From the IMG/VR virus record IMGVR_UViG_3300049009_000606, positions 1 through 46,587 of that record: a stretch of 46,587 nucleotides of DNA; one strand, written 5' to 3'. Numbering within the stretch: position 1 is the stretch's first letter; each line of letters starts with the position of its first letter. Below the pieces are notes generated by a model, which worked only from the letters and a program-made list of their open reading frames with translations, was not told where the DNA came from and did not search any database. Below are positions 4,875 to 28,400 of the stretch, piece by piece. The translations under genes were made by a program, and so were the position numbers. Origin of the DNA: a virus (Duplodnaviria > Caudoviricetes).

Positions 4875-4909
4875 ATCCCTACATCCATTCATCCCAACCC
4901 AATACCGAT

Positions 4910-6543: not shown

Positions 6544-6569
6544 TTTTGAGTAAGAGGTTGGGTTCATAC

Positions 6570-6866
6570 TATGAGGCAGTCGGGATGCCTCGCCCTTCTG
6601 GGCGATGGGCAAAGCCCGAGGATGCCATTAATAGTATTAATAGGGTGCTTCCTCGCTTCCTCGTCGTTCTGTAAGTGACGTAACTACAACGAGATCCGAT
6701 GAGGAATGGGGGGGTGTCGTTTTTGCCAAAAAGGAAAGGAAGGGGGGTAAATCGCACTTAAGTCGTTGATAATCAACGGAAGTGGTACCTTCCTCGCGCG
6801 GTTTGAGGCACGAGGATGAGGGGGGTAAAACACCCCTTCCTCGAACCACTACTATCAACGACTTAC
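6570..6866. promoter_or_regulatory. structured non-coding region; candidate replication origin or other cis site
   Basis: CTTCCTCG x4 (6648, 6656, 6789, 6836), CGAGGATG x2 (6617, 6811), an inverted pair of TATCAACGACTTA (6759-6771, 6853-6865) matching the IHF consensus WATCAANNNNTTR, and several hairpins. Confidence 0.55.
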
Positions 6867-6876
6867 GAAGCACGTT

Positions 6877-7146
6877 TCAGTCTCCGTAGTCGATGCTTTC
6901 GGCCTCTTCCTGGATGGCCTTCATCAGGCCTTCCGTGTAGCAAGGGTCTTCCTCGACGCCCTCCTCGTTGGTGCAGTCGATGATCTCGGTCTCGTCCCAG
7001 TCCAGCTCCCAATGCCCGCACTCCTCGGTCTGACGACGGCCACCCCAGTCGTGGTCGAACGAGTCGTCCTCCCAGGTCAGGCCGGCATTGATGTTGACGA
7101 TGTACGTGTGTCCACCGTGTTTGACGGTCAGTTCGGCTTCTTTCAT
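6877..7146 (-). CDS. acidic hypothetical protein
   Basis: ATG at 7146 (MKEAELTV), ATGA-coupled to the upstream ORF. Confidence 0.7.
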   Translation of the reverse strand: MKEAELTVKHGGHTYIVNINAGLTWEDDSFDHDWGGRRQTEECGHWELDWDETEIIDCTNEEGVEEDPCYTEGLMKAIQEEAESIDYGD

Positions 7147-7307
7147 TTGGTTGGGGGTTGATGGGTCCACTTGTTACGGGAGAGAAGTTCGGTCCAGAGG
7201 GCCTTTATCCCGGCCCTCATCTTGGAAACGAGCGCGCTTTCCAGCGGGGTGAGCTTCTTGAGCCCAGGCTTTGCCCGAGCCTCCTGTGGGGTGCTGGCAG
7301 TCTTCAT
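7143..7307 (-). CDS. small basic hypothetical protein (54 aa)
   Basis: Read manually: MKTASTPQEARAKPGLKKLTPLESALVSKMRAGIKALWTELLSRNKWTHQPPTK*. ATGA overlaps at both ends. Confidence 0.65.
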   Translation of the reverse strand: MKTASTPQEARAKPGLKKLTPLESALVSKMRAGIKALWTELLSRNKWTHQPPTK

Positions 7308-7501
7308 TGGTCGCGGATACCGAAGGTGTCGTTGCGGAGGAGCTTGAACTGATCGGAGGTCATATGGCGGATGATGCCATCCTCATCCAAGACGATGGCG
7401 AAGACGTCGTTGGCGAAGGTACCACCATCGCGGACGTAGATGAGCATACCGTAGCCGAGAGGGGTCTCGACGGGCATCGGATTGCGGAATTCGTGGATCA
7501 T
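7304..7501 (-). CDS. hypothetical protein (65 aa)
   Basis: ATGA-coupled ORF (MIHEFRNPMPVETPLGYG). Confidence 0.7.
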   Translation of the reverse strand: MIHEFRNPMPVETPLGYGMLIYVRDGGTFANDVFAIVLDEDGIIRHMTSDQFKLLRNDTFGIRDQ

Positions 7502-7710
7502 CGTTTGACGGAACGATTATGGGTGAGCCAGCCTTTGCCATCGACGTATGCGCTGACCACGTAGTTGGTCTCGCTGGGGTACCTCTCGATGCGAACCACA
7601 TAAGAATCATATTCGTCTCCGGGTTCAAAGTTCTCGATGATATTTACGATGACGTTATCTGCCCAGGCCTCAAAGCCTAGTCGGTTGACGTTTTCCGGGT
7701 CAGGTTTCAT
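7498..7710 (-). CDS. hypothetical protein (70 aa)
   Basis: ATGA-coupled ORF. Confidence 0.65.
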   Translation of the reverse strand: MKPDPENVNRLGFEAWADNVIVNIIENFEPGDEYDSYVVRIERYPSETNYVVSAYVDGKGWLTHNRSVKR

Positions 7711-7952
7711 TTGCCGAGTTCCTCGTCGAGCTTCTTGTCCAGGTAGGCGCAGTTGTTCTTGAGCCGCTCGACCTCGGCCTTGAGGTAGGCAATTTCGTTG
7801 TCGGTATCGATGGTTGCCTGGATGACGGCTACTCGGATGACCTTCAGCACTTCCGTGCTGAAAGCCTTCTGGAAGGCGTCGCGTTGGTCGGTGATCCTGC
7901 CGAGTTCAAGCCGGAGGGTGGTCGTCGGGTCGTGTGGTAGTTCTGGGTTCAT
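7707..7952 (-). CDS. coiled-coil hypothetical protein
   Basis: Heptad stretch EIAYLKAEVERLKNNCAYLDKKLDEEL. Confidence 0.65.
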   Translation of the reverse strand: MNPELPHDPTTTLRLELGRITDQRDAFQKAFSTEVLKVIRVAVIQATIDTDNEIAYLKAEVERLKNNCAYLDKKLDEELGK

Positions 7953-8475
7953 TGGGAAGGTCGATGGTATTGGTCAGGGAGGTCGTCACGTTGACGACGG
8001 TCTTCATAGAGTCGAGCCAGGTGCGCGCGCGATCGGCGATATCCTGGAGTTCGGATACGGACATATCCTGGAGGTCCTTCTTGCCTCGGTTGCCGACAGC
8101 CAGGGCAGCTGCGACAGCCGAGAGTCCGTGGCCGGAAGCCTCCAGGGTCCAACGAGCAGCCTGGAACTGAACCTGGGCAGGGGTGGCTGGGTCATCGAGC
8201 AGTCGGTTCATCACGGCCCAGGCCTTGGTGGCGCCCTTGGTCTTGATGTCGGTGTCGCGGTGAATCTCGATGGCCTCGCGGACCTTATGGTTCTTGAGCA
8301 GGGCCGATCCGTTGGACGGGTCGTAGCCGGCGGATTTAGCCGCGAGCATAGCGTTACCGCCATTGGCTACGTAGGCCTCGATGAAGGCCATCTGTTGCTC
8401 GGTGACGGTGCCCTCTGCGTCCTGACGGACGATGAGCCCGCCTTTCCATTGGTCTTTATCCGTTTGTTTTCGCAT
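7906..8475 (-). CDS. terS: terminase small subunit-like protein
   Basis: TEQQMAFIEAYVANGGNAMLAAKSAGY...LLKNHKVREAI is the typical N-terminal HTH of TerS. Confidence 0.7.
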   Translation of the reverse strand: MRKQTDKDQWKGGLIVRQDAEGTVTEQQMAFIEAYVANGGNAMLAAKSAGYDPSNGSALLKNHKVREAIEIHRDTDIKTKGATKAWAVMNRLLDDPATPAQVQFQAARWTLEASGHGLSAVAAALAVGNRGKKDLQDMSVSELQDIADRARTWLDSMKTVVNVTTSLTNTIDLPNEPRTTTRPDDHPPA

Positions 8476-8917
8476 CGTATTGTTTCTTCAAGTCTTTCCA
8501 GTCGATGCCGTTCATCTTGCAGAAGCGGTGGACGTTCTGGAGGTGGACGCCACCGAGGGAGTCGGCTACCTGTTCCAGGGTCTTGCCTGCCAGGGCACCC
8601 GCGATGATGGCGTCCCGCCAGCCGGTCTTGTCGATCTTCTTGCCCTGGCCCTTCTCGGAGGTCTTCCAGCGGATGCCGAGTATCTTAAGCCAGCCGTAGA
8701 TGCAGGGCTTGGAGTAGCCGAGCTTCCTGCAAGCGGCCCGCAGGGTCATCCGCTCCGCGTTCATCTTCTCCAGATGGGGACGCATCTCGACGAGCCTGAC
8801 GGCGGTGGAGTGGAACATCTTGTGCCCACGGAAGGACACGGCACCGCGCATCGAGCCTCGGTCTCCGGTGAAGGCGATGAGGGGGGACTGGATGATGGTC
8901 TCGTAGAGGTCGCTCAT
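8456..8917 (-). CDS. tandem helix-turn-helix DNA-binding protein
   Basis: Two HTH-like segments: TLRAACRKLGYSKPCIYGWL and TLEQVADSLGGVHLQNVHRF. Confidence 0.6.
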   Translation of the reverse strand: MSDLYETIIQSPLIAFTGDRGSMRGAVSFRGHKMFHSTAVRLVEMRPHLEKMNAERMTLRAACRKLGYSKPCIYGWLKILGIRWKTSEKGQGKKIDKTGWRDAIIAGALAGKTLEQVADSLGGVHLQNVHRFCKMNGIDWKDLKKQYDAKTNG

Positions 8918-9387
8918 TTGACGTAGATGGATCGGTAGATTTTCATCGCCTTCTCAAACTTGCGGTCGTCGAGCATAGGGTTCGACGGGCGGAAGCCGTA
9001 GCGTTTGAAGCCGTGGTAGCCCAAGTTAAAGGCAAGCCACGTTTCGTGGGCGAAGGCCTTACGACCGATGGCGAGGGAGACGCGGTCACGCAGATGCGTC
9101 AGCCAGGTACGAGCGTACTCGGTGGCGATATCCCTATCGTGGGCTCGCGTGAAAGGATATACCCGAAGGCCGAGGCACTTGCGAATCTCGGTGGTATCTT
9201 CCCAAGCTTCTTTGTGGAACTGGAATCGGCCACGGGCTTTTTTCGAATCTCCGAGAGCGGAGTCAGGGTCCTTCTCTCCGCCGGTCTCGATCTGCTGGAC
9301 TGCGTCCAGCCAGGAGTCGGGGACGGGAGCCGCGAGTACGCTGGCACTAAATATTAGATTTGTTACGAGGCTTTTTACGGGGTTCAT
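8914..9387 (-). CDS. lysozyme/lytic-transglycosylase-fold protein with N-terminal signal-like peptide
   Basis: LDAVQQIETGG (catalytic Glu), ALGD..KARGRFQF...W and WLAFNLG motifs. Hydrophobic leader ending in VLAA. Confidence 0.7.
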   Translation of the reverse strand: MNPVKSLVTNLIFSASVLAAPVPDSWLDAVQQIETGGEKDPDSALGDSKKARGRFQFHKEAWEDTTEIRKCLGLRVYPFTRAHDRDIATEYARTWLTHLRDRVSLAIGRKAFAHETWLAFNLGYHGFKRYGFRPSNPMLDDRKFEKAMKIYRSIYVK

Positions 9388-9598
9388 CGTGTTTGGTTGG
9401 GGAAGCTACACTTGCCTTCTTCGCTTTGCCTTCAACCTTTTTCTTTTGTTTTCTTGCGCGCCCCGTCCCCGAGATGGGGAGCCCGCCGGCATCACCGTAC
9501 TTCTTGATGCCTGCCTCCACTATCATTCGACATCGGTCCCAAAGTGAGACGTTATCTCGTCCGTCGTCTGCTTGCCTGATAATGGAGTGTTTGCTCAT
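9347..9598 (-). CDS. small Lys-rich hypothetical protein
   Basis: 83-aa ORF ATGA-coupled to the primase stop. Confidence 0.6.
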   Translation of the reverse strand: MSKHSIIRQADDGRDNVSLWDRCRMIVEAGIKKYGDAGGLPISGTGRARKQKKKVEGKAKKASVASPTKHDEPRKKPRNKSNI

Positions 9599-11868
9599 AT
9601 GGTTTTGATTACAATTCGTGCTTCGGTGTCATAGGCGTACATCTCCCAGTTCGGGGGATCGTAGGCACCGGAGTTGATTTCAGCCCCGATTTCATCGGTG
9701 GCGATGGGTCCGCTGGCGATATCGAGCCACTTCTTTTCCTTCCCGCCCTTGGCAGCAGCCGCGACGATGGCCTTGGACATCAGCATTTCGTCCACCAGAT
9801 GGGCGAATTCGCCTGGGCCGATGGACCGCAGGTTGGCCGGCAGTTCACCGCGACGACGGTACAGCCCGCTCTTGGCGTTCTTGCCCTCGATGGAGTAGGG
9901 GTGGCCGTTGCGCGCGCCCAGCGTGATGGCGGCGAGCATCCAAGCCTGACGCTCCATATAGTTGATGTCGTTGAACTTATCCTGATCGGTCACATCGACG
10001 AGCAGACCGGACTGCGTACGCAGGAGCGTACGCTCCCCATCAAACATCTCCGGGTTATTGGCCTTGATGACAGCCAGCTTCCAGAGGGAACCCTTCTTGG
10101 GGGTCATCTTCAGGGCTTTCATACGACGGTCGTAGTCGGAGCAATGCCACACCCCGATGTTACAGCGGAAAGCCGAAGGCAGGGCTGACGAGCCTCGGAT
10201 CGCGGCCTTCATCTGCTCCGCGTTGCGGATGGGCTCATCGCCCTGCTTGCGGATGTGGTGAACGACGATCAGGGTAGCGTTGAGTTCACCGCAAATCTGG
10301 CTGGCGACGCGGATGAATTCATTGATGACGGTGGCGGAATTCTCCTCCCCGTGCAGTACGGAATTTAGCGTGTCGATGACCACTAGTTGTAGGTTCTTGA
10401 TGTTCTTCAACAGGTTAAAGAACTCAAGCCATTTGCGGGAGGCCCTGGCCTCCTGGGTGCGCGGGTCCTTCTCGACGAGGGGGAAGGCACCGCCCGAGTT
10501 GATGGTAGGCAGGATGACGAGGTCATCACCGGCGTCCCGACGACGTTCACCGTTCGGGTCCATATCGTGGAGGCGGATGTGGAGTTCATCCTTGTCGTCC
10601 TCCGTGGTCAGGATGACGACGGCACCCTTACGCATCACGGGCATGCCGCCCCAGGTATCACCTTCCTTGTTGCCGGCAACCTTCAGAGCCAGGTCCAGCA
10701 TCAGGAAGGTCTTGCCTGCCCCGCCTTCAGCGACGAGAAGGTGGTGCTTGCCGGCCAGGATAAGCTTGTTGACGAGGAACTGACGGGTCGGAGGGGTATC
10801 AAGGGACCAGCGATGGGCGCCCCATACCGCGAGCCCCTGGCCCTCCTGGAGGATGGGCTTTTCGGGCTCCTGCATCGGCCCGTGGCTGGAGATGTCCTTG
10901 CGGAGCAAGCCCTGCCACTCGGAGGTGAACCTGGCGTCGGGCCAAGGTGGATCCATATGGGCAAGCATCCACCCGTGGGTAGCCTGCTTGGCCTCTTCGA
11001 CGTTCATATCCCCCTTGCGGGCTACGTGCAGATAGTGTCCCGCTACGCGGGTGAAGGCAGACCAACGGGTCTCCCCGCCTTCGGCACCAGCCGAGACGTC
11101 CGTGGTCAGGGCGGCGGATGTGTCCGTCTCGGGCTTGAACATAGCACCGACCTTGGCGACCTCTTCCTTCAAGGCCCAGGGGCTGGCCGGAAGCAGGGCT
11201 ACCTTGGTGGGGAAGGCCTCGTCGGGTACGGGTTCTGAAAGCTTCTCGATAGTGACGAGACGCAGGACTCCCGACTTACCGTGGATGGAGCCGGCGACAC
11301 GGATCGGCTGGTGGGCACGACCGTACGGGTTGCCGTCTACGCCCAGGCCGAACTGGATATCCGCTCCGCACTTACGTGCGACGGCATCTCGATAGGTGAC
11401 GATCTCTTGGACGGTGATGGTCGGGCTGACAGACCAGTAGACGTGACGCTTGGGCTTCCCCTCTTCGGTGGTGCCACCGGACAGGACGACCATCGCCGCA
11501 GGGCCGAGGTGTTCTTCAGAGTAGGCTAACTTCGCGTCGGTATCTCCCGTGTCGAAGTCCGCGCACACGGTGCGAAACACGTCGCAGTTTTCCGACGTGC
11601 CACGGCACTCGCGAAGAGTGCAAGGCACGATGAAGGTGGCTACGCCGTGCTGACCCCAGCGGGTGGCGTGGAACTGGACCGACATCGAGAAGCGACGCCA
11701 GCCCAGGGAGCTTGGCTGAAGGAAGATGTCCTCGCGGAACACGCCTTCCCGCTCGGTGCCCTTCTCTCCGATCCCACGCAGGCATACGTATCCCGTTGGG
11801 TTCTCTCCGAAGAGCAGACGAAGGTGCGAGTCAATGGCAGAGCCATCGACGATAAGAGCATCGCTCAT
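9595..11868 (-). CDS. primase-helicase (AEP/RepB'-like primase fused to RepA/AAA_25-type helicase)
   Basis: N-terminal ADFD, SGG..KRHVYW and PIRVAGS primase motifs. C-terminal Walker A AEGGAGKT, Walker B LVVIDTL, VVHHIRK and RGSSAL. Confidence 0.85.
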   Translation of the reverse strand: MSDALIVDGSAIDSHLRLLFGENPTGYVCLRGIGEKGTEREGVFREDIFLQPSSLGWRRFSMSVQFHATRWGQHGVATFIVPCTLRECRGTSENCDVFRTVCADFDTGDTDAKLAYSEEHLGPAAMVVLSGGTTEEGKPKRHVYWSVSPTITVQEIVTYRDAVARKCGADIQFGLGVDGNPYGRAHQPIRVAGSIHGKSGVLRLVTIEKLSEPVPDEAFPTKVALLPASPWALKEEVAKVGAMFKPETDTSAALTTDVSAGAEGGETRWSAFTRVAGHYLHVARKGDMNVEEAKQATHGWMLAHMDPPWPDARFTSEWQGLLRKDISSHGPMQEPEKPILQEGQGLAVWGAHRWSLDTPPTRQFLVNKLILAGKHHLLVAEGGAGKTFLMLDLALKVAGNKEGDTWGGMPVMRKGAVVILTTEDDKDELHIRLHDMDPNGERRRDAGDDLVILPTINSGGAFPLVEKDPRTQEARASRKWLEFFNLLKNIKNLQLVVIDTLNSVLHGEENSATVINEFIRVASQICGELNATLIVVHHIRKQGDEPIRNAEQMKAAIRGSSALPSAFRCNIGVWHCSDYDRRMKALKMTPKKGSLWKLAVIKANNPEMFDGERTLLRTQSGLLVDVTDQDKFNDINYMERQAWMLAAITLGARNGHPYSIEGKNAKSGLYRRRGELPANLRSIGPGEFAHLVDEMLMSKAIVAAAAKGGKEKKWLDIASGPIATDEIGAEINSGAYDPPNWEMYAYDTEARIVIKTI

Positions 11869-11870
11869 CG

Positions 11871-12188
11871 TTAGATAAAGCGAATGAAGATAGGCGTCTT
11901 AGAACCGACGTACGAACCTGTGACGTTGTACGACATATGGTCCATCGCGTCCTCTTCGGACATCCCTTCGACGACGAAGAAAATCTCGATGCACTTATCG
12001 TGGTCATAGACGACGACGGGCTCCATCGAGCCAGCCGTGACGCCGATGATGGCTGCTTCCAGCCCATCGGCCAGGAGCAACTCATCGCCCATCTCTTCGG
12101 CGATCTCGTTAATCTTCTTGAGGTTATCTTTACCCTCTTGGACGAGCATGTCCTTGAGGATGTTTTTCTTCACTTTTTTGGAAGCCAT
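11871..12188 (-). CDS. conserved phage hypothetical protein
   Basis: ADGLEAAIIGV...VVYD...EEDAMDHMSYNV.GSYVG..TPIF pattern, recurrent in aquatic phages. Confidence 0.75.
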   Translation of the reverse strand: MASKKVKKNILKDMLVQEGKDNLKKINEIAEEMGDELLLADGLEAAIIGVTAGSMEPVVVYDHDKCIEIFFVVEGMSEEDAMDHMSYNVTGSYVGSKTPIFIRFI

Positions 12189-13000
12189 GAAGGTGTAATT
12201 TCGGGGGTGGTGTTGGGTTTGAGTGAGCTAAAATCGAACGTCTGAACGGGCTCCTGCTTGACGACCTTGCGCGACCAGCATCTGTCGCGGAAGTCGCACA
12301 TGACCTTGCATCGGTAGTCGGACGGGTCCTTATAAGGGCGGGGGATTTCCTCGGGGTCAAGGGTTGATACGATGACGACGAGTTTATCGATGGAATCCTG
12401 GCAGTCGCGTGAGTTGAAAGGGATGACCTCGACGTTGATCTCGGCGGAGTCTCGGTTGAGGCACGTGAACAGGCAGGACTCCAGCTTGTGGTAGCCCATA
12501 TAGACCTGGACCTGGGCGTAATAGACAGGTTTGCTTTCCTTGATGCCCTTGCTGACGGCATCCTTAAAAGACGACATCCCGAGGGCCTTATTTTCCCAGA
12601 GCATAGGATATACGAGGCCTGGGATTTCCGGGCCGCCCTGCACGACTCCGTCAAGGTGGCCCTTGAACTTCCCATCCAGGTCTGAGATGCCGATCTGGCG
12701 ACCGTCAGAGGTATGGGTCTGGAGGTCGAAGCCGGCAAGGCGAAGATACTCGGCGACGCGGGATTCTCCGTCGTGGCCCATATCAAACATACGCAGGGTA
12801 GTGCCCTTGAATTCAGCACCAGGGTCCTTCTCCGTCATGTGGTATTCGTAAGCAAGTTTACGTGAACAGTCCTCCCCGATGCGTGATGCGCCGAGGTACT
12901 TTCGTTTCGGCTGCTCCTTATTTTTTGCCTGCATAGCCTTGTCGATAAGTTCGACGACGGCATCGTGCGTAGGGTTTTTGATCTCGGGTTTGAATTTCAT
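12170..13000 (-). CDS. Cas4-like PD-(D/E)XK exonuclease
   Basis: ATG at 13000 (MKFKPEIK, TGATG-coupled). YLGASRIGEDC, GHLDG, LWENK, YYAQVQVYM and the C-terminal Cys cluster (CKVMCDFRDRC). Confidence 0.85.
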   Translation of the reverse strand: MKFKPEIKNPTHDAVVELIDKAMQAKNKEQPKRKYLGASRIGEDCSRKLAYEYHMTEKDPGAEFKGTTLRMFDMGHDGESRVAEYLRLAGFDLQTHTSDGRQIGISDLDGKFKGHLDGVVQGGPEIPGLVYPMLWENKALGMSSFKDAVSKGIKESKPVYYAQVQVYMGYHKLESCLFTCLNRDSAEINVEVIPFNSRDCQDSIDKLVVIVSTLDPEEIPRPYKDPSDYRCKVMCDFRDRCWSRKVVKQEPVQTFDFSSLKPNTTPEITPSWLPKK

Positions 13001-14673
13001 CAGATTGCTAGGACCTTGGCTTTTATAGCCCGCTCGCGGAACTTCCAAGTAAGAAGGCAGGATGCCTTGTACTTTGTGAGGCCCATCGCGGAGAGGGGGG
13101 TGAGTCCAAGGATGTCGAGTTGCTTGTTGGACGGGGGTTCGTGGAGCCATCGCTTGGACTTTCGGGCGGCGTCCTTGTCGCCGTGTTCGCGGAGATAGTC
13201 GTCGGCGGAGGCGATAGCCTGGAGCCGGTCGGTGGTGACGCCGATCAGCTTGACGCTGGCAGAATCGTCCATCCCGCCAACTACCCACTCCTTGTCGTCG
13301 TGGCGGACCACTACGGTCCAGGCGGTCATCGCGTTAGCCATCGTGACCATGCCATCCCAGAAGGTTTCCCATCTGAACGGAGACATCTCAAAGATTTCTA
13401 CCTCTGTCAGGGTAAAGTTGACCAGGTCCTCGCGATCCTCGGAGGCCTCCTTTAAGCGACGCTCTACGGCATCAAAGATATGTTCACACGCTGGGCACAC
13501 GGCCAGGGGTGCAGGGACCTCCATCCCGCAGGACGGACAGGTTTTGACCATAGGCTCGCCGGCTGCTACGGGCTCTAGCTTAACCTCGGTCTCGATGCCA
13601 CCGTGAGTAAGTAGTGAATAACCGAAGTCCATCACGATGCAGTCGGTCTTGATGACCCCTGGATAACGCTCCGGGTCTACCTTACGCAGACCACGACCAA
13701 TCATCTGGATCATCGTAGACTTGAAGGAGCATGGGCGGAGCAGCACGACGCACGACACGGTCTGGCAGTCCCAACCTTCGGTCAGGACGGCGACGTTTAC
13801 CAGCACCTGGAAATGGTCGTGTTCGAAACCGTGCAGGACCTTGCGTCGCGCGTGGTCGGAAAGATTGCCGTGAACGATGTCGGCCTTGACGCCGGCTTCC
13901 TTGAGGGCCTCGGTTACGTGTTCGGCGTGTTCGACGGTGGAGCAGAACAGGACCGTCTTACGGTCGCCTGCTTTGGCCTTCCACTCCTCGATGACCCGCT
14001 CGTTGACGGCGGACTTGTCCATGATCGCCGCGACGGCGTCCATATCAAAGTCGGCGATAGTACGCCTGACGGAGGCAAGCTCTTGGCGGAGCCCGCAGTC
14101 GATAACGAAGACGCGAGGGCGGACCAGATTGCCGGCCTCGATAAGCTCCTTGACGGTAATGACGTCGGAGACGTTGGAGAACACTTCCTTGAGGGCCTTC
14201 TTATCCCCGCGTTGAGGGGTGGCGGTGACGCCTAGAACCTTAAGGTCTGGGTTTAGCTCCCTGGCACGATCCAAGATAGAGCGGTAGGAGACAGCGGCTA
14301 CGTGATGGGCCTCGTCGATGACGATCAGGTCCATCTTGGGCATAGTCTCCAGGTTGTCTGGGCGCGAGAGGGTCTGGACCATCGCGAAAGTGGCCCCTTC
14401 AGACCACCGCTTTCTGTCGGCGGCGTAGATGTCTGATGGGGTATTTGGGGAAACCCGCTTGAAGGTAGCCCTGTTCTGGGCCACCAGTTCATCGCGGTGT
14501 TGAATCACCAGGGTCCGCATGCCCGGGGTCTTATCCATCAACAGATGGATGGCGGATGATAGCATGACCGTCTTGCCGGCCCCAGTAGGGGCTACGCCAA
14601 GGGTCTCTCCGCATTCGGCGATAGCCCATAGAGTCTTACGCACGAACTCCTGCTGTCGAGGACGGAGCTTCAT
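13000..14673 (-). CDS. SF2 (DEAD/DEAH-like) DNA helicase with Zn ribbon
   Basis: PTGAGKT, DEAHH, TAT, LTEGWD and QMIGRGLR motifs, plus CPSC..CPAC. Confidence 0.92.
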   Translation of the reverse strand: MKLRPRQQEFVRKTLWAIAECGETLGVAPTGAGKTVMLSSAIHLLMDKTPGMRTLVIQHRDELVAQNRATFKRVSPNTPSDIYAADRKRWSEGATFAMVQTLSRPDNLETMPKMDLIVIDEAHHVAAVSYRSILDRARELNPDLKVLGVTATPQRGDKKALKEVFSNVSDVITVKELIEAGNLVRPRVFVIDCGLRQELASVRRTIADFDMDAVAAIMDKSAVNERVIEEWKAKAGDRKTVLFCSTVEHAEHVTEALKEAGVKADIVHGNLSDHARRKVLHGFEHDHFQVLVNVAVLTEGWDCQTVSCVVLLRPCSFKSTMIQMIGRGLRKVDPERYPGVIKTDCIVMDFGYSLLTHGGIETEVKLEPVAAGEPMVKTCPSCGMEVPAPLAVCPACEHIFDAVERRLKEASEDREDLVNFTLTEVEIFEMSPFRWETFWDGMVTMANAMTAWTVVVRHDDKEWVVGGMDDSASVKLIGVTTDRLQAIASADDYLREHGDKDAARKSKRWLHEPPSNKQLDILGLTPLSAMGLTKYKASCLLTWKFRERAIKAKVLAI

Positions 14674-14677
14674 AGGA

Positions 14678-14950
14678 AAAAGACACCACCGCGTACCGAA
14701 GCAGAGGCGATGGAGCGACCGACTAAACGCCGATCTAAAAATGGGGGTGCGGGAGGAGAGGTGACCCCAACAGTCACTTCACTCCTGCGTGAATTATAAG
14801 CGGAATGGGCCAGACCGACGGCTGGTTTATCGCTTTTCACTCGCACCTTGGGTGTTTTAAAGAGAACAGAATTACCGGACCTGTCAGATATCATAGCGTA
14901 GAATGAATAATACGCCAGTAATATCTGGGCTGGGGGCCCGGTAATTCTGC
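14678..14950 (+). ncRNA. putative structured non-coding element (RNA or ssDNA) between the helicase and SSB genes
   Basis: Multi-branch fold plus a long hairpin. The wobble pairs I traced are G-T on the + strand (see findings). Confidence 0.55.
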
Positions 14951-14956
14951 GAGGGG

Positions 14957-15562
14957 TTAGAACGGGCCGTTAGAGGAACCCGGAGCCTTGGGCCAAGACG
15001 GCTTCGCGATGGAAGCAGCCGTGGAGGGCTTGATGGAGAACGCGGAACCGCGAGCCTGATCGATGGCGGTCTGACCGCCGATAAGCTTCTGGTAATCCTT
15101 GAAGCCACCAGATGCGGGGTTCGGGGAGAGCCATTCGCCGACCTTATTCTTGTCAGAATAGGCAGGGTCCTTGGACTCCTCGATCTTGACCTTGATGGCG
15201 ACGCGCTGGCCGTCCATGCCGTTCATAATTTCCAGCGTCGGCTTGCCTTCGAAGGCGTTGTACGACTCGGGCTTGGCCGGCGTGAACCAGCCGCTCGATT
15301 CGAAGATGCGGGCGACGGACGTGATGCCCATCTTGCGCCACTTCTCGCTGTTGCGGTCGTCCTGGATATCCGGGATCATGTCGAAGACCTTACGGCCTTC
15401 GTGGTCACCGCCGACGAGGGTCAGCGTCACGGGGAAGTACGTACCGCCGGTGGTGCCGGACTGGCGCGCGGCCTGAACCGTGAGGATGGCCCAGGAGATG
15501 GTGCCGTTGGGGATGAGTTCCGGTGCCGAACTGGCTCCGGAGGTGGGGGAGAACATGCTCAT
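14957..15562 (-). CDS. single-stranded DNA-binding protein-like (DUF669-like)
   Basis: ELIPNGT...GRKVFD, KVKIE..KN.V OB-like core, flexible tail ending in PF, located next to a Sak4-like ATPase. Confidence 0.65.
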   Translation of the reverse strand: MSMFSPTSGASSAPELIPNGTISWAILTVQAARQSGTTGGTYFPVTLTLVGGDHEGRKVFDMIPDIQDDRNSEKWRKMGITSVARIFESSGWFTPAKPESYNAFEGKPTLEIMNGMDGQRVAIKVKIEESKDPAYSDKNKVGEWLSPNPASGGFKDYQKLIGGQTAIDQARGSAFSIKPSTAASIAKPSWPKAPGSSNGPF

Positions 15563-15593
15563 GTTTTCTTGGTGTTGTGTTGGGGGGTGGAAA

Positions 15594-16445
15594 TTACTTC
15601 TGCTCGGGCATCGCGGTGATGACGTTGGTGTCGGTGCGTTTGCCTTCGCGAATCTTCTTCATCAGGGCCTTCAGATCAGGGGCCTCCAGGACGTCGAGAC
15701 GACCGGAGCGGTCCTTCGCGGGGTAGCCCCACGGGTTCTGCTGCTGACAGCACAGGCCACGGTACATCGTGCCATCTTCAGCCTTGAAGCTTTGGAGCGT
15801 GATGACCTGATCGAAGATGCCAGGGAGTTCGCGACCGGTAGCGGCACCTTCGACCTGGGGAGACCAAGAAACACGCTTCAGGTCGTCTTCCTCGCGGTTG
15901 AGGATGCCGACCATGATGACGGATTTGTTGCAATGCTGGAGGTGCGTGGACCAGCGCATCATTTCCTTCTTCAGGATGCCGTAGGCACCACGTGTGTCGG
16001 GCTTGCCGGTCTTCTCGGACACAGCCTCGGGCTGCTTTTCGGCCCACTTGAAGCACTCGCGAGACGCCACCGTGATAGAGTCAACGAAGATGGTGTCGTA
16101 CTTCTGGAGGTCGATGTCCTTGAAAGCTTCCTGGACGGCATCGTAGTTGGGCTTGGAATAAGCACCGGTGGCGTCGCTCGGATCGTGACCGCCGATGTAG
16201 AGGGCGAGCGCGCGGGCGATTTCCCACGGGTAGCGACCGTACTCCTGGGCGGCGGCACGGACGTCGATGACGTCACCGGGCCAGTCCTGGATGGCGAGGG
16301 TGCCGGCCTCCAGGTCCACGAAGAGGGTCTTCGCGGGGTCGAGGGTGCGGGCGAGGGTGGTCTTGCCGACTCCGGACGGGCCGAAGACGAGCATGTTGAT
16401 TTTGGGTACGGACTTGAGGCGTTCGCTGGCCTTGATGATTTTCAT
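15594..16445 (-). CDS. Sak4-like / AAA_24 ATPase (ssDNA annealing recombinase)
   Basis: GPSGVGKT, LFVDLEAG, IFVDSIT and AKDRSGRL motifs. Confidence 0.85.
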   Translation of the reverse strand: MKIIKASERLKSVPKINMLVFGPSGVGKTTLARTLDPAKTLFVDLEAGTLAIQDWPGDVIDVRAAAQEYGRYPWEIARALALYIGGHDPSDATGAYSKPNYDAVQEAFKDIDLQKYDTIFVDSITVASRECFKWAEKQPEAVSEKTGKPDTRGAYGILKKEMMRWSTHLQHCNKSVIMVGILNREEDDLKRVSWSPQVEGAATGRELPGIFDQVITLQSFKAEDGTMYRGLCCQQQNPWGYPAKDRSGRLDVLEAPDLKALMKKIREGKRTDTNVITAMPEQK

Positions 16446-16463
16446 GTTTGTTGGGTTGGGAGA

Positions 16464-16922: not shown

Positions 16923-17178
16923 GTCGGTGGGAAATAGATTCGCCGGCGTTGGGAGCCGAGCGGACCAAGTAGTCGTTCAAATTGATAGGGTGCTTTTCGT
17001 ACGTGGCAAGTTCAAGAAGCTCCATGATGCGAGGGGACGGGACGCTGTTGCGTTCTCCCCACTTCTCGATCGTCTTCACAGAAAGCTTGTAGCCCCTGGC
17101 ATTCATCCGACGCCAAAGCTCCATGCGACCACCGAAGCGGGCGACGAGTTTCTTGATGTCGAGTGTTTGATTCTTCAC
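16888..17178 (-). CDS. Cro-like HTH regulator
   Basis: GTG start. IKKLVARFGGRMELWRRM...LSVKTIEKWGERNSVP is Cro/YdaS-like. First gene of the replication operon. Confidence 0.7.
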   Translation of the reverse strand: MKNQTLDIKKLVARFGGRMELWRRMNARGYKLSVKTIEKWGERNSVPSPRIMELLELATYEKHPINLNDYLVRSAPNAGESISHRHEKQKSKVVPR

Positions 17179-17200
17179 GGCGTTGGGTCCGATGGAAGAG

Positions 17201-19056: not shown

Positions 19057-19392
19057 TCAACGCCACTTTCCGCTCCGCAGGAGCAGGCCAATGACGCCGT
19101 AGTTTGCGAGATCGGACCAAGAATCGATGATCGGTTCGTTGGTAGCAGCCGGCTCGCCCTTCATCTCCTTCGTGAGGAGATTCCGGATTCGGCTTACTTT
19201 ATCCTGGGTGCGGACCATGACACCCAACTCGCCGTTCAAACTGATATTGCTGCTCCCATAGTCCATCTGCTTACGGTCCATAAGCTGGGCTAGGGGAATG
19301 ATGGCGCGGAGGTATTCGCGTCCCATCTCAGTCTGGAGGCCGAGATCAGCGTGGAGCTTCTCGGCCAGGGCGTCGGTATCAATGTTGGGCAT
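19057..19392 (-). CDS. Nucleotide-modification-associated domain 1 (Nmad1/DUF1599) protein
   Basis: KQMDYG, GVMVRTQDKVSRIRNL and DSWSDLANYGVI motifs. ATG at 19392. Confidence 0.8.
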   Translation of the reverse strand: MPNIDTDALAEKLHADLGLQTEMGREYLRAIIPLAQLMDRKQMDYGSSNISLNGELGVMVRTQDKVSRIRNLLTKEMKGEPAATNEPIIDSWSDLANYGVIGLLLRSGKWR

Positions 19393-19435
19393 TGTGGGAT
19401 AATACTCCCCCAATACCCAACATCAGTCAACCATC

Positions 19436-22400
19436 TTATCGCGATGGAGGCCTGGGCTTAGGGGGAGACGTAGGCTCAGGTGTCTGGCTACTTCCCCTTT
19501 CCTGCTTTTCGCCGGCAAAGAGGTCGGCGACAGCCTTTTCGGTACGGTTGTTGGCGACAGCCTGGGCCGCAAGGCCAGCCACAACCTTAACAGGCATCGG
19601 GGCCATCTCGGTAGCCAGGGCAAGACCAGCGTTGGCAGCGGGAACGAAGGCAGATCGGTAACCAACAGACGCCACCGCCCGCTGGGCAGCATTAGAATCA
19701 GGGTTTTCGATCATTGCCGCGCCGGCAGTCCATGCCTTCTTGGCCCAATCTCCGACTACGCCAGCTGGAAGTTGTCCGCGTGAGATGGCCTTCCATAAGA
19801 TTTCGGCAGGGCCCAGCATGCCGGTATATACAAAGGCGTCCGCCATAGACTTAACCCATGCAGGCACCTTGTCTCCATCCTTGAATTCAAACCCAGTCAG
19901 CATATTGATGATGGTTCTGATTCCGTAGGTAGCAGCCGTAGCCACGGCGAAAGCAGGACCTACTCCGGCCATAAGCATACGTTCGGTGGCGTTGTATTTA
20001 TTATCTCCAACGATCTTGCGACTCTGTTCCTGCATGCGTCGTCCGTGTTGAGCGGACCACTCATTGGTAAACGTAGAGAACTGGAAGAACATGCGTCCCA
20101 ATGCAGTATCATTTGCCGATTCCGTACGAGAAGACCGTGAGGCCTGGACGGACGACTGCTTGTTGAAGATGATAAGTGCCTGACGGTATTTAGCGGCCAT
20201 CGGATCTCCGCTCATAATAGCTTGGAGTTGCTGCGTTTCGTTGCCTTTACGCATTTCCTTTACCCAGGCTGAAAACTCGGCCAGGTCTTCATCCTTTAGG
20301 CCAAGCTCTTTAAGTCTGTCTTTTGCAAGGTTATCAGCCTTAGCTTCCTTACCCATTGCTCGCGCGATGCGCTGAAGATTGTGGGTACCTTCAAGCCACT
20401 TGATATTAGTATCGATGAAGTCAGCCCCGATTCGCAGAGATATCTCTCTCTTCGCTGCTTCGGTAGCATGGATGCCGTACATGCGGTATACGCCATCTGA
20501 CGCCTTGTTTAGCTTACCCTGGTAGTCGGAACCGCCGTCCAGGTGATAGCCTGATGCGATGGTGCCGAAACCACGGTCGATCGTATTGATGCCAAACTCA
20601 ATAGCCAGGGCAGAGGCAAGGTCATGTCCCTTTCCATAGATGCGCTCAATTTCATTTCTTGCGTTGGTGGTCTGTTCAGGCGTCAGGCGTCCAACGATAT
20701 TGCCGGTCCTGCGGAACATCTGCCACACGGCCTTGACGCTGTCTGATGCCGATTCGGTGCGAACTCCGATAGAAGCAGCCTCGGTGATATTTAAAAGACC
20801 GGTGAGCTTCAGGTAGGCTGCGTTTGAGATAAGCTTGGTGAAGTCAAGGGCCTGCTGGGTCTCTTCGCCCATGCGCTTTCCGCCAATACCGATGTTCGAT
20901 TTGATAAGCTGCTCGATCTCTGCGATGTCCTTCGGGTCTACACCCTGCTTGTCCATCTCGCTCTTGATCTTGCCCCATGCTCCGTTGTCCACTCCGATTC
21001 GTCGGGATACTTCTGCCTTACGCACAAGACCGCCAACATAGTTAATAACGGTGCGCTCGACGTCCTTGTCTCGGTAAGCGTCAAAGAGCAAAGCCTCGTC
21101 CTTGGTAAACTCGCGCTTTTTCTGGAAGCTTTCCTTGGTTCCCTGGCGTGGCTCTTCAAAGATTCCATGCTCGAAGTCCAGGCCTTCACGCCCAAGCAGG
21201 ATAGCATCGCGCCACTTACGGGCCATCAGATCAAAGTCAGGGGTCTCCGCCTCAACGTATTCGGTTCCATTCTTAGCCGCCTCATCTTTTGCCTCCTGCT
21301 TGAGACGTTCAAACTGAACCTCATATGCCTTGGTGGCCGCACGAACAAAGCCGGCCTTGTCTGCATCTACCGCGTTGGCATCTACGGATCGAGGGAAGAA
21401 TCCTTCAACCTTTCCAAGCTTCAGACCAGCATCGATACCGTACTTTTGCATTTCTGCCAGAACGACACCGACTTCCTTGATGGCTTCACCGACACGTCCG
21501 CCTACTTGGCGAGGGGCGCGTCCTTCTACGCACTTGATGAATAGCGAGTTGAACTCCTTCAGTTCAGCCGGCCCCATCTTTCGCATGTCTTCCAATACAG
21601 GGCCAAAAGCCTTGGTAAGTTTGTTGAAGAACACGTTTCGCATGTTTGCGGAATCCGTGTTGTAATCGGGTGCTTCAGCTTCCTTGCCCGGGATGAGCGA
21701 GAAGTCATTGACTACTTTTTGAAGTGCTTCGGACTGCGGGTTAAGATCAGCAATCGTACGCATACGCATCGAAAGCGGCTTAAACCACGCCACGACTGGA
21801 TGGTCTACTACGCTGCGCCACACCTTGCCCCCTGCGGTAAGCTCTGGCTTTTCACCGCGAGCCAGGTTCCGGTCAACTTCGCGGGCCTGGTCAATGGCGT
21901 CGCGTTCTTCCGGGGTAAGGCGGGTTGCCTCTTCGACGTCCTTCTTGCTGGACATCTTTGGCTCTGAATAGACAGACGGGTCTGCGTCTTCAGGCTTATA
22001 CCGTCCCTTGGCAAAGTTTGCCAGGATACGCTTGGCCTGCTCCTTACCGAATACCTGGGCAAAAGCCGTCTTGATGCTGTTCCACACGCCGGCAATCTTC
22101 TGCTTCCAACCTGGCTGCTCGCCGGTGTAGGCAGGGTCATTGTTAAGCTTTTCACGGGCCGCTTCCTTAAAGGTCTCAGCGAACCATTCGCGCGGGGTGA
22201 ATAGGCGGTACATCTCGTCCGTAGGACGAACCTCATAATGGGTAATCTCGCCCTTCTTGTTACGTGCCGGAGACACGAAACGATCAAGCGTAGGGAAGTC
22301 AGCAGCAGCCTCGGCGTAAGCTTCCTTAGAAATCTTAACCTTGGCCCAGTTGTCAGAGCCTTCTACAAGGCGACCGAACACGCTCCACTTATCCGTGAAC

Positions 22401-25400
22401 TTCTTGCGGGCTGCAAGCCACTCGGCCCGTAGGGCAGCACGATCCCCCTCGGGCAGGAACTGTTCCAGGTGGTGGCCGACTTCGTGGCCGGCGGTGTCTT
22501 CAAAACGGCCACGCTGGATGGCTTCCTTGAAGATAGTTACGATGCGGTTAGCTACGTCGTACTGGCCCTGGTGACCAGGGCGACCCTGGCGAATGGACAT
22601 CTTAACACCATCAAAGAACTGTCCACCGATGTAGTTGATGATACGGCTAAGACCCTCGACTTCCTTGTCCGTGATTTCCCCGCGCATACGGGCTTCGGAA
22701 ACGGCGCGGTCCATGATTCCGATGAATCCACGGCGACCTCCGTCCTCTTCCTTGCCGGCTTCGCGGTTCTCGGCGTTCTGCTTGACGCGACGGTCAAGCT
22801 CCCTGGCCTTACGCTCTTCCATGTCGAAGGCGTCGTTCGCGTCGTTGTTCGGATCGCGACGAGAATCCAAGGTCTCATCAAGAGTCCATTTCTTCTCGTT
22901 TTCGTATGACGACTTTCTGTCGATACGTGACTGATCGCGAGCTTCCTTTTGTTCCCATGCGCCTTCAAACCACCTCTTTGACTCGGTGAGCAAAGATTCA
23001 AGCTCTTTAAGCTTAAGCTGGGTCAAGACTTCGTTTCCATCACGTCTTGCTTCCGTGATTTCATCCCTGACCTTGTCGATCCTACGATCATATTCATTTT
23101 GCTTCTGCTTTGCCCTGTAGCCAGAACCTTCACGGAACTGGATGTCTTCACCATGCTGAACGACCCTGTGTACGATGCTCTTGAAAGATGTCTCGCCGTC
23201 GCGCGGTCCGATGCTGTTGCCATCTTTGTCGTATGCGAAGAACCTATTTCCGTCGGTGATGATCTTGGTTCCGTCTTCATGGGTCCAGGTTTTTTGTAGA
23301 CCAATGTCCCTGGTGTTCTCGTCGAGCTTCTGGTTAATTAGATCACGCAGAGCTTTGTGCTTAGGCCAATTGTTCACTTCGACTCCCTGTCGCCATGCGA
23401 TATCATCAAACCATCCACCTCCGTTTTGGTCAGCTGTGCGCTTCCTTGCTTCCTTCCAGAAATCAAGTTCCGAAGCGTCGGGATGGCGTTCGCGCCATTC
23501 CTTGAAAAGCTTATCCATTCTTTCCTTCGCCCATCCGGACTGGTCCTCTTCCGGATCGCGACGCATGTCCAGGGTGGTACCTTCGGCCCCAGACTTCATC
23601 TCCTTGCGTACTTCGGCGATTCGCTGGCGGAGCATACTGCCACCCGTAAGTCCGTTATTAGGATTGGAGTAAGGGTCGATACGAACCTTGTCTCTCAATG
23701 TTTCAGCGATTTCTCTAATGGAAGTACCAGGTTCAAAATATTCGTACGGAGTGCTGTTGTATTCAGCGTCTCTGCTGTAATCAAATTCTAATCCATCGCG
23801 AAGACTTAGTTGTGCCTTGTTCTTTGGGTTGTACTTTCTACCGGTTATCGCGGTCGATAGAGATTCAAATGCGGGATGGCTCTGAACCCACTCCATCGTA
23901 GGCTCGAATTTATCATTGTGTTCTTTGATGCTTCTACGGACGTGTTCCAGCACGTCAGCGTTCTTTTTACCCCAAAGGTCTTTATGGTTCTCGCTGATGT
24001 CTTTTTCAAGCACGGCGCGCTTTTCCCTTAGGTCAGCTACCTCTTTCATCAGTTCGGCCCTACGTGCCTCAGTAAGACCTTCCGGCTCACCCCTGGAACC
24101 TCCCGGTTCAGGAGCCTCAAAGAGATCAATTTCGTCGATACGATCATTAAGCTTTTCAAGCTCCTTGACCTTCTTACGACCAACCTCGTCGCCATACTGC
24201 GTCCCCGATGCCGGCTCGGTACGACCAACCGTGGCCTGACCTGTCTTGGGCTTGCGGATCAGGATAGCGTCGCTGCCTTCGGTCTTCTGTTCGAAGCCGT
24301 TCTTCTTGTACCACTCGATCAGCTGCTGCTTGTTCAGGGACTCGCCCTTGCCGATGATGGACCGGAACGGGGTAGGCTCCAACTGGAGCGTAAGCCCGGC
24401 CTTGTCAGCGGCTTCGGTAAGCTCGGCAAGGGCCTTGCTCGCGGAGCCCTTGCCACGGCCTTCAGGGGCGGTGACAATGCGCTCGATGTTGTAGATGACG
24501 TTGCCGGCGGCGTCCTTCTCCTGACCGTCCATGATCTGGACCTTGCCGTTGACCAACTCCATGCCTTCAGAGGCCAGGGTAATCTTGGTGTCACCGACCA
24601 CCAGGGTAGGACGCTGGCGACCGTTGTCCTCTACGCCGCCCTCGGCGACGAAGTCGTCCGTGTTGTTGCGACGCAGGATCTTCAGGTCCTTCTCGGCCAG
24701 GGCGTCTTCCAGCTTCTCGATTGGGTACTTCTTTTCGGCAGGCTCCTGGGCGGCTTCCTGAACGGGAGGCTTTGCCGGCTCGCCGGCAGGCTGGCTCTTG
24801 CCGCGAATAGACTCGATGTGCGAGATAGCCATTCGAAGGCCGGAGTGCGGGTCGTTCTGACTGTTTGTGAACTGCTTAATTTCCTTGAACGGCATAACCT
24901 CTCCGTTTTCGACTGAAAGGATCTTGAAGTATCCGTTGGAATCCTTCCTTGTTACTCCGGCCATGTGCGAGATGGCAAACTTTCCAGACTTATCAATCCA
25001 GGTCTTGTTGCGATTCCCCCTTACATCGCCGTCTCCATCAAGAGAGAAGCCCGCCTTTTTGAGCAGCTTAGTGTCCTCAAGCGCCAATGAATAATCCTTT
25101 AGAAGTCCTTCGCTTACATGCGCCCTTAGAAGGGCGTTCTTCCTCTCTTGTTCAGTTTTCGCTTCGGCTGCTGCTTTCCTGTGTTTTTTGACCTCGTCTG
25201 CAAACTCGTTGATCTTGTCGTTTATTTTCTCCTCGATGTCCTTTTCGACGGCTTCCCGTGCGGGTTCGGTCTTGGGGGATTCAGGCTGCTCGACAACGTC
25301 CTTCCGTCCGGCAAGCCACTTCTCGTAGTCGGCCTTCTTGACGGTGGTGCCGCCAAGTTTGTACCCGACCTTCTCGTTCATCGCTTGAACAAAGCTGCTT

Positions 25401-28400
25401 AAGGAATGTGAAAGATCTGTTGGCTCCGCAGAAAGACTTCCCCAAACATCCATGTATTTGTACTTTTCAAGAAGCTTCTTTGAGAGATGGTAAATCTCAA
25501 TTTCAAGCTCCCTTGCCATTGGGTTTTCGTGCTTCTTAGATCTTCCGTAAGTGTTCTTGTTGATTACAACAAGTTTTTCAAGCTCGACCATTTTGGCGAC
25601 AAGTTCTCTTACATTTGCGTCGTTTTTCCAAATGTCCATACCGCCTTTAATAGCTTTAATTCTCTCTCTGACGTGTTCAGCTGTTGGTGTTTCTCCTGCT
25701 GAAGGCTTTCTTCCGCGTCTTTCATTATCGGCGGAAATGGCTCTTCCAAGATGCTCTTCCTCTGCCTTGATCGCATCTTCTATGCTCTTTTTTCGTTCAG
25801 CCTCAGTATAGTCAGTCCTAATGTTCAATCGCGCTTCGCGTGAAGAATCTAATTCAATTTCCTTAACCTTTGGATCCTCTACCCAATCCTGCGTAGTTGC
25901 TCCAGCAGGCTGGTCCTTGGCGTTTGCCTTGTCGCGATAAGGCTCCATCTTGCGAGAAAGGTAACGCAAGATGGTCTTGGCTCGGATGTCCGGCTCCGCC
26001 AGGGCTTCCTCGCGCGTGGTCGTGTCGTAAGGCATCGGCATCCTCTTGAGGTTATCCTCAGATAGGGAAGCCTCACGGATATCCGGGAAGATCTTTTCAA
26101 GCTGCTTGATGACGTTCTCGATACGTCCCTCGGCCTTGGCCTTGGTTCCACCCATTGGCTTATATTCTCCGATATCGGACACAATATTGAAGGTCTTCAG
26201 GACCTTGTCGTAGTCGAACGGAGCGTCCTTCGTGTCCAAGCCCTGGCCGGCGTCCGGAGGCGTGACCTTCGGCTTCGGCTTGGCGCCCTGGCCGGCTTCA
26301 CCTTCGCCGGAAACGCTATCAAGCAGCTTCTTGATGGCCTTCGCATCCTTACCTGGCTTGTTCTTGTTATTCCAATCTGGGCCAAATTCTGTCAATGTGC
26401 CCTTCTTGAGGTATTCGAAAAGCTTATCTACGGTCTTGATGCCTTCGGGAATCACAATGTCAGCCGATTGGTGCAATTCCAATACGGTGCCGTCTGAATG
26501 CCTTCTTCCGGTATCGCTGATCAGTCGGACGCTCAGATCTCCCGTGATATGGTTCGTACCAATGTCGATTCCAATAAGTGCGCCCTTTCCTGGGCTGGTC
26601 TTTTTGACAAAAGTATATCTCGTAGCCTCCTCTTCAGAGTCCAGCATTTTGATGTTCTCAGACCGGAACTTAATTCCTCCGATTTCGGTCTCAAATCCTT
26701 CCGGTTCATTCACAGGGGCTTCCTTGCCGGACTTGTCCGGCTTCGTCGCCTGCTGCTCCTGGGGCTGCTCGGCAGCATCCATTGCGTCCAGCTTGTCCTG
26801 GAGTTCTGCGGCTCGGTTTGACAGTCGTTCTGACTCTTCCGGGTCAACTTCGACTAGGCTTGCGGCCTCTTCGTTGATTTGCTCGATTTCGTCTTCGATA
26901 CTCTGTCGCCTGGAATCATTCTTCTTTTTGTCCTTCTTTGCCTTCTTTTCGGCATCGTCTTTTCCCTTGGTGTTCTCCCACTTTCTATCAGTAAAAACCT
27001 CTTCAAACCAAAGGTATTTTGGCTTTTTCTCTCCTGTCTTTCCAAGCTTGTAAACAGGTTGGCTCCCGTCCGCAGGGTACGAAACTCCAATTACATCCCA
27101 ACCCTGGGCTTCCTTACTGATACCTTCAGCGCCTTCAGGGAATCCACCCATAGCACGATAGTCCATACCTTGAGATTCATTCGATCCTTTATTGGTCTTA
27201 TCTTTCTTCTTCTTTTCCTGCTTTTCTGGCACCGGCATTGCATCCAGCTTTGCGCGCTCCATGTCCAGGGTAGCCTGAACCTTCTCCTTTTGCTTGTCGG
27301 TGTATTTATTCGGCTTCTGTTTATCCAGACGGGCTAATTGCTTTTCTAGGCCAGAAACGACATTCTTTTGGGTTTCGTAGTCTACCTGCTCCTTTGACGG
27401 TTCGGTCGTATCGGCAGGGCTTTCTTCGCGCCAAGCAGCCTCACGTTCCGCGACATCCTTCGGGTTCTCACGCGGGTCAGCCTGTTCACCGGCAGGGTCG
27501 AAATCACGGTCTTCTTCGACTTTCTTCTCCAGGTTGGCAACAGCCTCGTTCAGTTTCTTCAGCTGGGCCTCCTGGGTGGTACCGGGTTCTGGCTGCGTAG
27601 CCGCGAGGCGATCGCGCTGCTCGCGAAGGTGGGCCAACTGGACCTCAGGAGAGGACTCTTGGGCTTCCGGGATAACAGGTTCTGATGGGGGCTTACTAGC
27701 AGCAGCCTCGGCATCCAGCATCTCAACAGACCTGGGAGTACCGGTAGGCGCCGGCGGGCGTTCACCCTGTTCACGGGCCTGCTGCTGGAGCTTGGCGATA
27801 TGGTCGAAAGCGGCGTCAGCAATCGGACCCATAAGCTCAGGATCCTCGTTGGCTGCTTCTTGAAGGTTTTTTAGGCGCTGCCTTGCGGCTTCAATAAGTT
27901 CTGCCTCGTTGATGAGTTTAATGGCCTCCTTGGGGTCAGGAGTGTTCTCCTTCTTAGCCTGCTCACGAAGCTTTTGTGCTTTTCCGCTCACCCAAGCGTC
28001 GTAGTCCTCTTCAGCAAACTGAATTGCCTCTTCCTTGGTAATAGGAATTGGTCTATCTTTTATTTCCTTAAGCTTGCGATTGTGATCAGCAGTTCGCGCG
28101 GAACGCTCTTCTGAGCTGAGAACACGTGGTTCTCCTGGAGTGTCCTGTTGAACAGGAGCATCAGTTCCATTAGTAGGTTTAGGAAGTTCAGCCTTCGGAA
28201 TGCCGCTTGACCAATGAGTAGCCGAATATTTGTCATCCCATTCTTTTAACAGCTTCTGGTGCGCGGCAATTGCCTCAGGAGAAAGATCTGCACCAGGTCC
28301 ATTTTCTAAAATAGGACGAGAGGGGATGGTTCCCTCTGGGGTGCTAGACTGCATCGGAGGAGGAGTAGGAATTTCCTCCCTTTGAGCTGCATTCCGTTCA

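Follow-up and report, generated by a model that had tools for sequence, protein, structure and literature searches.

Which function can be assigned to the structured stretch that fills the gap between the stop of the SSB-like gene (14957) and the start of the SF2 helicase gene (14673) in a 46.6-kb, complete-looking phage record, here called the window in its full length of 46,587 nt? The replication operon around this gap comprises a Cro-like gene, a 152-aa gene, Sak4, the SSB-like gene, the SF2 helicase, a Cas4-like nuclease and a primase-like AAA protein; terminase, portal, capsid and a 3587-aa virion-region gene are all found on the minus strand of the window as well. The label SSB for 14957-15562 is provisional and derives from the place after Sak4 and an acidic/aromatic-type tail, the gene having no Pfam or PDB match and only phrog_2300, of unknown function, as a relative. 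Matches to Sak4 among annotated phages all stay below 60% identity, pattern and protein scans of genome contigs gave nothing close as a host, and the RNA runs that contain relatives are lake or freshwater metatranscriptomes. The 3587-aa protein (19436-30199) carries a weakly matching GNAT-like segment near residues 2850-2940, numbered on the ORF as read from start-region pieces, and is otherwise without annotation.

A preliminary description of this DNA, made from the letters of the window, had seen in the gap one multi-branched element of about 270 nt. All helix arms that it listed were found at their places, and none of 200 shuffles folds as well as the stretch (14670-14960) on either strand (z -4.38 for plus and -5.36 for minus). 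The single unit did not survive: the outer stem AAGACACC/GGTGTTTT depends on a module of 60 nt that L001, L002 and L004 do not have, so that this stem is not conserved; RNA contigs of relatives show the corresponding 60-nt skip. On the minus strand, which is that of the mRNAs, the stretch is best divided into a rod of variable sequence, a three-way junction of 105 nt that is conserved and hereafter called the core, and the optional module (Table 1). A short ORF of 74 aa that crosses the element (14670-14894) was discarded because homologues have frame-breaking indels. Neither could a common system with the elements at 1-240 and 6570-6866 be upheld: model R1 of the core has a single match in the window, for 1-240 no significant structure emerges on either strand (z about -1 for each), and 6570-6866, where both strands fold strongly (z -5.4 and -6.4), contains TTCCTCG repeats together with an inverted repeat around TTGATA/TATCAA, is unrelated to the core and looks like a replication origin.

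Table 1. Features of the structured stretch and its predicted target sites in the window.
Feature	Position	Strand	Details
Three-way-junction core, predicted small RNA	14743..14847	minus	alignment A1, covariation, model R1 113.7 bits
Core layout		minus	P1 (6 bp in the window), P2 arm, P3 arm, then CCCA (14745-14742)
Loop 1, CCGUCGGU	14814..14821	minus	complement of site B (ACCGAC/ACCGAU); invariant in 26/26
Loop 2, UGUUGGG	14766..14772	minus	complement of site A (CCCAAC/UCCAAC); invariant in 26/26
Upstream rod with U-rich tail	14859..14949	minus	composition-corrected z -8.5 on minus, -4.8 on plus
Optional two-hairpin module with UUCG loop, outside the core	14676..14742	minus	composition-corrected z -3.2 on minus, -0.4 on plus
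Target with both sites, upstream of ATG 16922 (start of the 152-aa gene that precedes Sak4)	16923..16953	minus	site A (CCCAAC) 16953-16948, site B (ACCGAC) 16928-16923
Target with both sites, shortly downstream of the DUF1599 start (ATG 19392)	19372..19389	minus	
Two-part target (CCCAAC...ACCGAT) before ATG 4910	4893..4909	plus	sequence match in the window
Leader site A of GTG 17178, start of the Cro-like gene that opens the replication operon	17182..17187	minus	
Hairpin that hides AUG 19392 and site A when the transcript reads through, with its own UGUUGGG copy	19381..19424	minus	z -5.7 on minus
Further single site-A copies at starts 6562, 7155, 9401, 12217, 15584, 16455, 16460	within 6557..16460	minus	
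Single site-A copies at starts	4115, 5427	plus	

On comparative sequence evidence the core is a real, well-conserved RNA motif. The covariation among homologues that the preliminary description had named as a check was found in 26 distinct cores (92 locus matches; three that contain N and one that is truncated were excluded). In alignment A1, 94.4% of 728 cells are paired and 22 of the 28 pairs have changed on both sides. None of 500 shuffles reaches this covariation, and slid registers are 43-49% paired, a comparison that favours the observed pairing because the structure was drawn from the same sequences. The two loops, complements of short tags at gene starts termed site A and site B, do not vary, and most of the UGAN/CUMUC internal loop is invariant too. 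Model R1 finds more members elsewhere, up to A+T-rich ones, and, at 45-57 bits, three divergent members with changed loops (L284, L286 and L312). As had been foreseen, the stretch resembles neither a tRNA nor a riboswitch, Rfam giving no match at gathering score for the window and for 11 related loci and none up to E 10 on 14500-15100, and ARAGORN detecting no tRNA in the window. Loose DNA patterns gave mostly chance matches; of 118 metagenome loci, 2 proved real, with zero new loop variants. The motif was undescribed in the full-text literature searched, where the alignments of PMC10690425 and PMC5737381 were covered in part, and the available portion of the review PMC12197685 contains no such motif. 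Metatranscriptome contigs of relatives, which show neither strand nor ends, span the core in two of four runs (X1 and X4). Contigs in X1 end at 14844 and restart at 14851, flanking the predicted 5' end, but contigs in X4 bridge this position, so that the break is no evidence for a 5' end.

The core RNA very probably lies on the minus strand, a call based on wobble pairs, tetraloops and a neighbouring tRNA. The preliminary description had read selection on the plus strand out of the wobble pairs; the 8 G-T pairs concerned are confined to the ends of helices and to internal loops that vary, and in the column of the AGG/CUU wobble, 21 of the 26 homologues have C, 3 have A and 2 have T. Across the conserved helices the minus-strand cells amount to 668 Watson-Crick, 26 G-U, 7 A-C and 7 other combinations (708 in total, with four rows left out for P2b and hand re-registered for P2c), although the margin of 26 to 7 rests mostly on P3b and P1, as counting by distinct position and type leaves 8 versus 5. 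Rod and module both fold more stably on minus (Table 1), and GNRA/UUCG loops in 40 distinct spacers number 17 on minus and 6 on plus with about 3 expected each, where modules are shared between loci. Stability of the core itself is no discriminator, with a z of -2.8 on minus versus -3.25 on plus in the window, a better minus-strand value in 13 of 26 homologues and a raw energy lower on plus in 22 of 26.

This equal or better folding on plus would also suit a plus-strand RNA whose exposed CCCAACA and ACCGACGG copy the mRNA tags, so that it would serve as a decoy for an RNA-binding protein, for which CsrB is the analogue. The identity of loops and sites would account for the same conservation, and P1 can be extended by G-U pairs on plus. 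Such a decoy appears improbable, since its 5-bp loop-closing stem would hold an A-C mismatch in 16 of 26 homologues and the sites vary as G-U pairing permits, with UCCAAC in L267, L274 and L276 and ACCGAU in L031, L245, L248, L254 and L256; in addition, rod, module, tetraloops and the tRNA of L028 are all on the minus strand.

As a covarying junction exposes two invariant loops complementary to tags at non-structural starts, the RNA likely regulates these starts. With a probability of roughly two in three, we read the core as a minus-strand small RNA which pairs with the start tags and blocks translation initiation of an early-gene regulon. The window holds three two-part matches versus 0.69 expected, a number reached in 3 of 100 shuffles, and all three lie at gene starts, 2.1, 4.5 and 9.8 kb from the core. 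Before ATG 16922 the two sites follow each other in antiparallel order to the loops. For this 152-aa gene, 55 distinct start regions were scored, with three loci skipped: both sites are present in 29 of 29 loci with the canonical RNA and in 4 of 5 truncated loci, whereas loci without canonical RNA, which include three with divergent RNAs of changed loop 2, show site A in 0 of 21 and site B in 4 of 21, counts that are not independent as the carriers form one clade. Within the Cro-like frame, site A is spelled by the Pro codon CCC in 30/30 and the Asn codon AAC in 33/33 cases, compared with CCC in 9/33 and 7/24 at two other conserved prolines and with one non-target Lys codon that is invariant; site A is kept despite another reading frame in L029. 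The leader of GTG 17178 has site A in most carrier loci and not in relatives without the RNA. At the DUF1599 gene, site A is shifted into the leader in L270, L271 and L282, and the codons say less there, since a number of control codons show no variation either.

That pairing would repress rather than activate is our assumption. A minus-strand RNA could also pair with the same tags and activate or stabilise the mRNAs, for example by opening the hairpin over the DUF1599 start, which hides AUG and site A by means of a loop 2 copy; the RNA moreover lies in the early operon together with tag-bearing genes. This hairpin is kept in several homologues and lost in L273, L270, L271 and L282. It also spans a TTGAC promoter-like site, so that local and read-through DUF1599 transcripts would differ in accessibility. 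Activation nevertheless seems as unlikely as a decoy: site B abuts or overlaps start codons, and pairing at start codons normally blocks ribosomes; in most tagged leaders, which are rich in C and A, there is nothing to open; and a loop of 7 nt would hardly invade a long hairpin.

Still less probable is an action in place, either as a leader of the helicase gene or as a single-stranded DNA priming signal for the primase-like protein, the latter an idea of the preliminary description. The element always sits between the SSB-like gene and the helicase, and its distance to the helicase start shrinks to 10 nt in some loci, but the core-to-helicase spacer ranges from 10 to 334 nt (40 distinct loci) and can contain a tRNA-Met, in L028 3 nt after the core on the same strand, or, in L286, a gene. 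Riboswitches and cis leaders differ from the core in the same respect, the core having no fixed position before a start and no Rfam match. As DNA, the stretch folds about equally on both strands (-48.2 vs -47.0 kcal/mol), G-U wobbles and RNA tetraloops favour RNA, and neither form of local action explains the distant complementary sites. From the proposal of a new antisense RNA, the structured and probably antisense-acting RNA has stood, most likely on the opposite strand and with several early starts in trans instead of the abutting helicase start as predicted targets. The spacers of L029, L030, L035, L022 and L028 hold arrays of optional hairpin modules with U-tracts between them, several with CCUCU internal loops or GGUYGGG motifs.

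The tag pattern extends over the genome. Ranked with a simple purpose-made gene caller of approximate starts, CCCAAC takes rank 1, 1, 2 and 1 among start-region hexamers of the window and three carrier genomes; where loop 2 is altered or missing, as in four other genomes, it falls to 126, 487, 198 and 95. Across the four carriers it is found at 51 of 138 non-structural versus 0 of 59 structural starts (pooled p 5e-10, the genomes being related). Site B (ACCGAC) is not enriched genome-wide (ranks 501, 21, 488 and none). C/A-rich leaders occur in non-carriers too, with AACAAC in G004 and CAACAC and ACCAAC in G008; being general in these phages, they suggest that site A may double as an enhancer of translation or initiation. 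That a real RNA matches these C/A-rich leaders by mere coincidence is, however, very improbable, considering both the loss of rank without the loop and a roughly counted chance of about 0.002 for a loop complement to equal a top-two start hexamer.

Transcripts reading through the Sak4-SSB operon, a promoter within the upstream rod, or both would supply the antisense RNA, which would be excised at the base of P1, probably by RNase P, and would then accumulate. Loop 2 would contact CCCAAC at about one third of the non-structural starts, and at key genes (starts 16922, 19392 and 4910) loop 1 would also make contact, at the start codon itself or next to it. The outcome would be negative feedback, in which early genes are shut off and structural genes without the tag stay translated. 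The rod, variable in sequence and ending in a U-rich tract, is likely a terminator or processing hairpin of the Sak4-SSB transcript. Its sequence possibly includes the promoter of the RNA, as a -35-like hexamer (14918-14913) lies 17 nt before a -10-like TATGAT (14895-14890) in the window and a spacing of 16-17 nt is kept in 33 of 36 distinct rods. The corresponding promoter rule, derived from these same sequences and with a fit partly forced by hairpin symmetry, applies to 20 of 39 early-promoter candidates and 4 of 27 DUF1599 candidates versus a background of 4.5%. This promoter we infer rather than count as found, because the rule came from the sequences that it describes and a generic promoter scan did not call the rod hexamers.

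In integrase-bearing relatives the RNA may also serve immunity. Tyrosine integrases are encoded in G001 (11207-12637, with an additional HTH_3 repressor), G002 (27295-28314) and G003 (15217-16143), inserted between lysis genes and early promoter, and two of the three have CCCAAC at the integrase start, which makes an immunity role plausible in these genomes. The window and G006 have no integrase at that place, nor does the window hold a match to the integrases of the relatives or, among its PHROG matches, an antirepressor, the kind of gene whose operon C4 controls in a temperate phage.

By analogy, the core is most likely a C4/CI-like antisense repressor outside both families. The C4 RNA of P1/P7, as described in the sections of PMC5320573 available, has three stems and two loops, one addressing the ribosome-binding region and one an upstream site, and RNase P cuts it out of a longer transcript at the P1 base. 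The core shares the three-stem junction, with other arm lengths, and the complementarity of two loops to two predicted target sites, one of them at a translation start; integrases are carried by the relatives G001-G003 and not by the window. On the other hand, the covariance model of C4 (RF01695) gives no match to the core, which measures about 105 nt versus about 77 nt and combines a short P1 with two long arms, whereas the outer stem of C4 is long and bulged and its capped arm short, so far as the available part of PMC2864571 depicts it. Each genome, moreover, has roughly a dozen targets of the core, located on either strand at distances of kilobases. The CI RNA of the satellite phage P4 is, according to the available part of PMC4825925, processed from an untranslated part of the operon, and its predicted pairing with two sites silences replication genes of the phage itself. 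With CI, and with the IsrK/SeqA system, the core would have in common the origin from an operon transcript, the silencing of own genes and the two-site pairing; CI, however, pairs with flanking sites and causes termination, while the sites of the core are at distant start codons and Rfam gives no match. Of tRNAs and tRNA-like RNase P substrates the core recalls the stacking of P1 on P3, the 5' G and NCCA after P1 in 16 of 26 cores (13 CCCA and 3 CCAA), without having a D or T loop consensus.

While C4 and CI each address one neighbouring operon in a temperate phage, the core appears to apply the two-loop logic genome-wide, at early starts of phages whose leaders mostly lack Shine-Dalgarno motifs. 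If correct, timing would here depend on a simple RNA switch that lends itself to testing, and compensatory tests would be eased by the shortness of loops and sites. A further generalization, that one protein-free RNA constitutes the early-to-late switch of the whole family by reading the initiation tag CCCAAC, and that distant two-loop junctions form a retargeted wider class, is speculative and we regard it as rather doubtful. If host mRNAs shared the CCCAAC tag, host and early phage messages would be silenced together and ribosomes left for structural genes.

Divergent relatives at the same locus are only suggestive of a co-change of loops and sites, which is not clean. The changed loop 2 of L286 is matched by ACCAAC-AUG at two starts; L284 lacks a site of this kind at the key gene, and ACCGAAA-AUG, which matches loop 1 of L286, also occurs in L312, where the loop is unchanged. 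In G003 a shift toward ACCAAC is seen, with 4 of 16 copies at starts versus 3 of 31 for CCCAAC. A one-loop RNA missed by model R1 is found at L061:2912-3006, with CGUCGGUU in arm 1 and a short GGAA/GAAA-capped hairpin as arm 2; this locus has site B only, ACCGAC preceding the 152-aa and Sak4 homologues.

Other structures occur in further relatives. In the more distant L037-L043 and L052, the SSB-like stop is directly followed by another kind of two-arm junction (for example L038:3596-3705), the loops of which include UUUGUGUGG and CUCAUGGC and for which Rfam gave no match in L037, L039 and L041; L038 has CCACACAAA and CCAUGA at the start of the next gene. A third type of element, with GAGA and GAAA caps, precedes the helicase or the next gene in L044-L046 and L049-L051 (for example L046:3742-3851).
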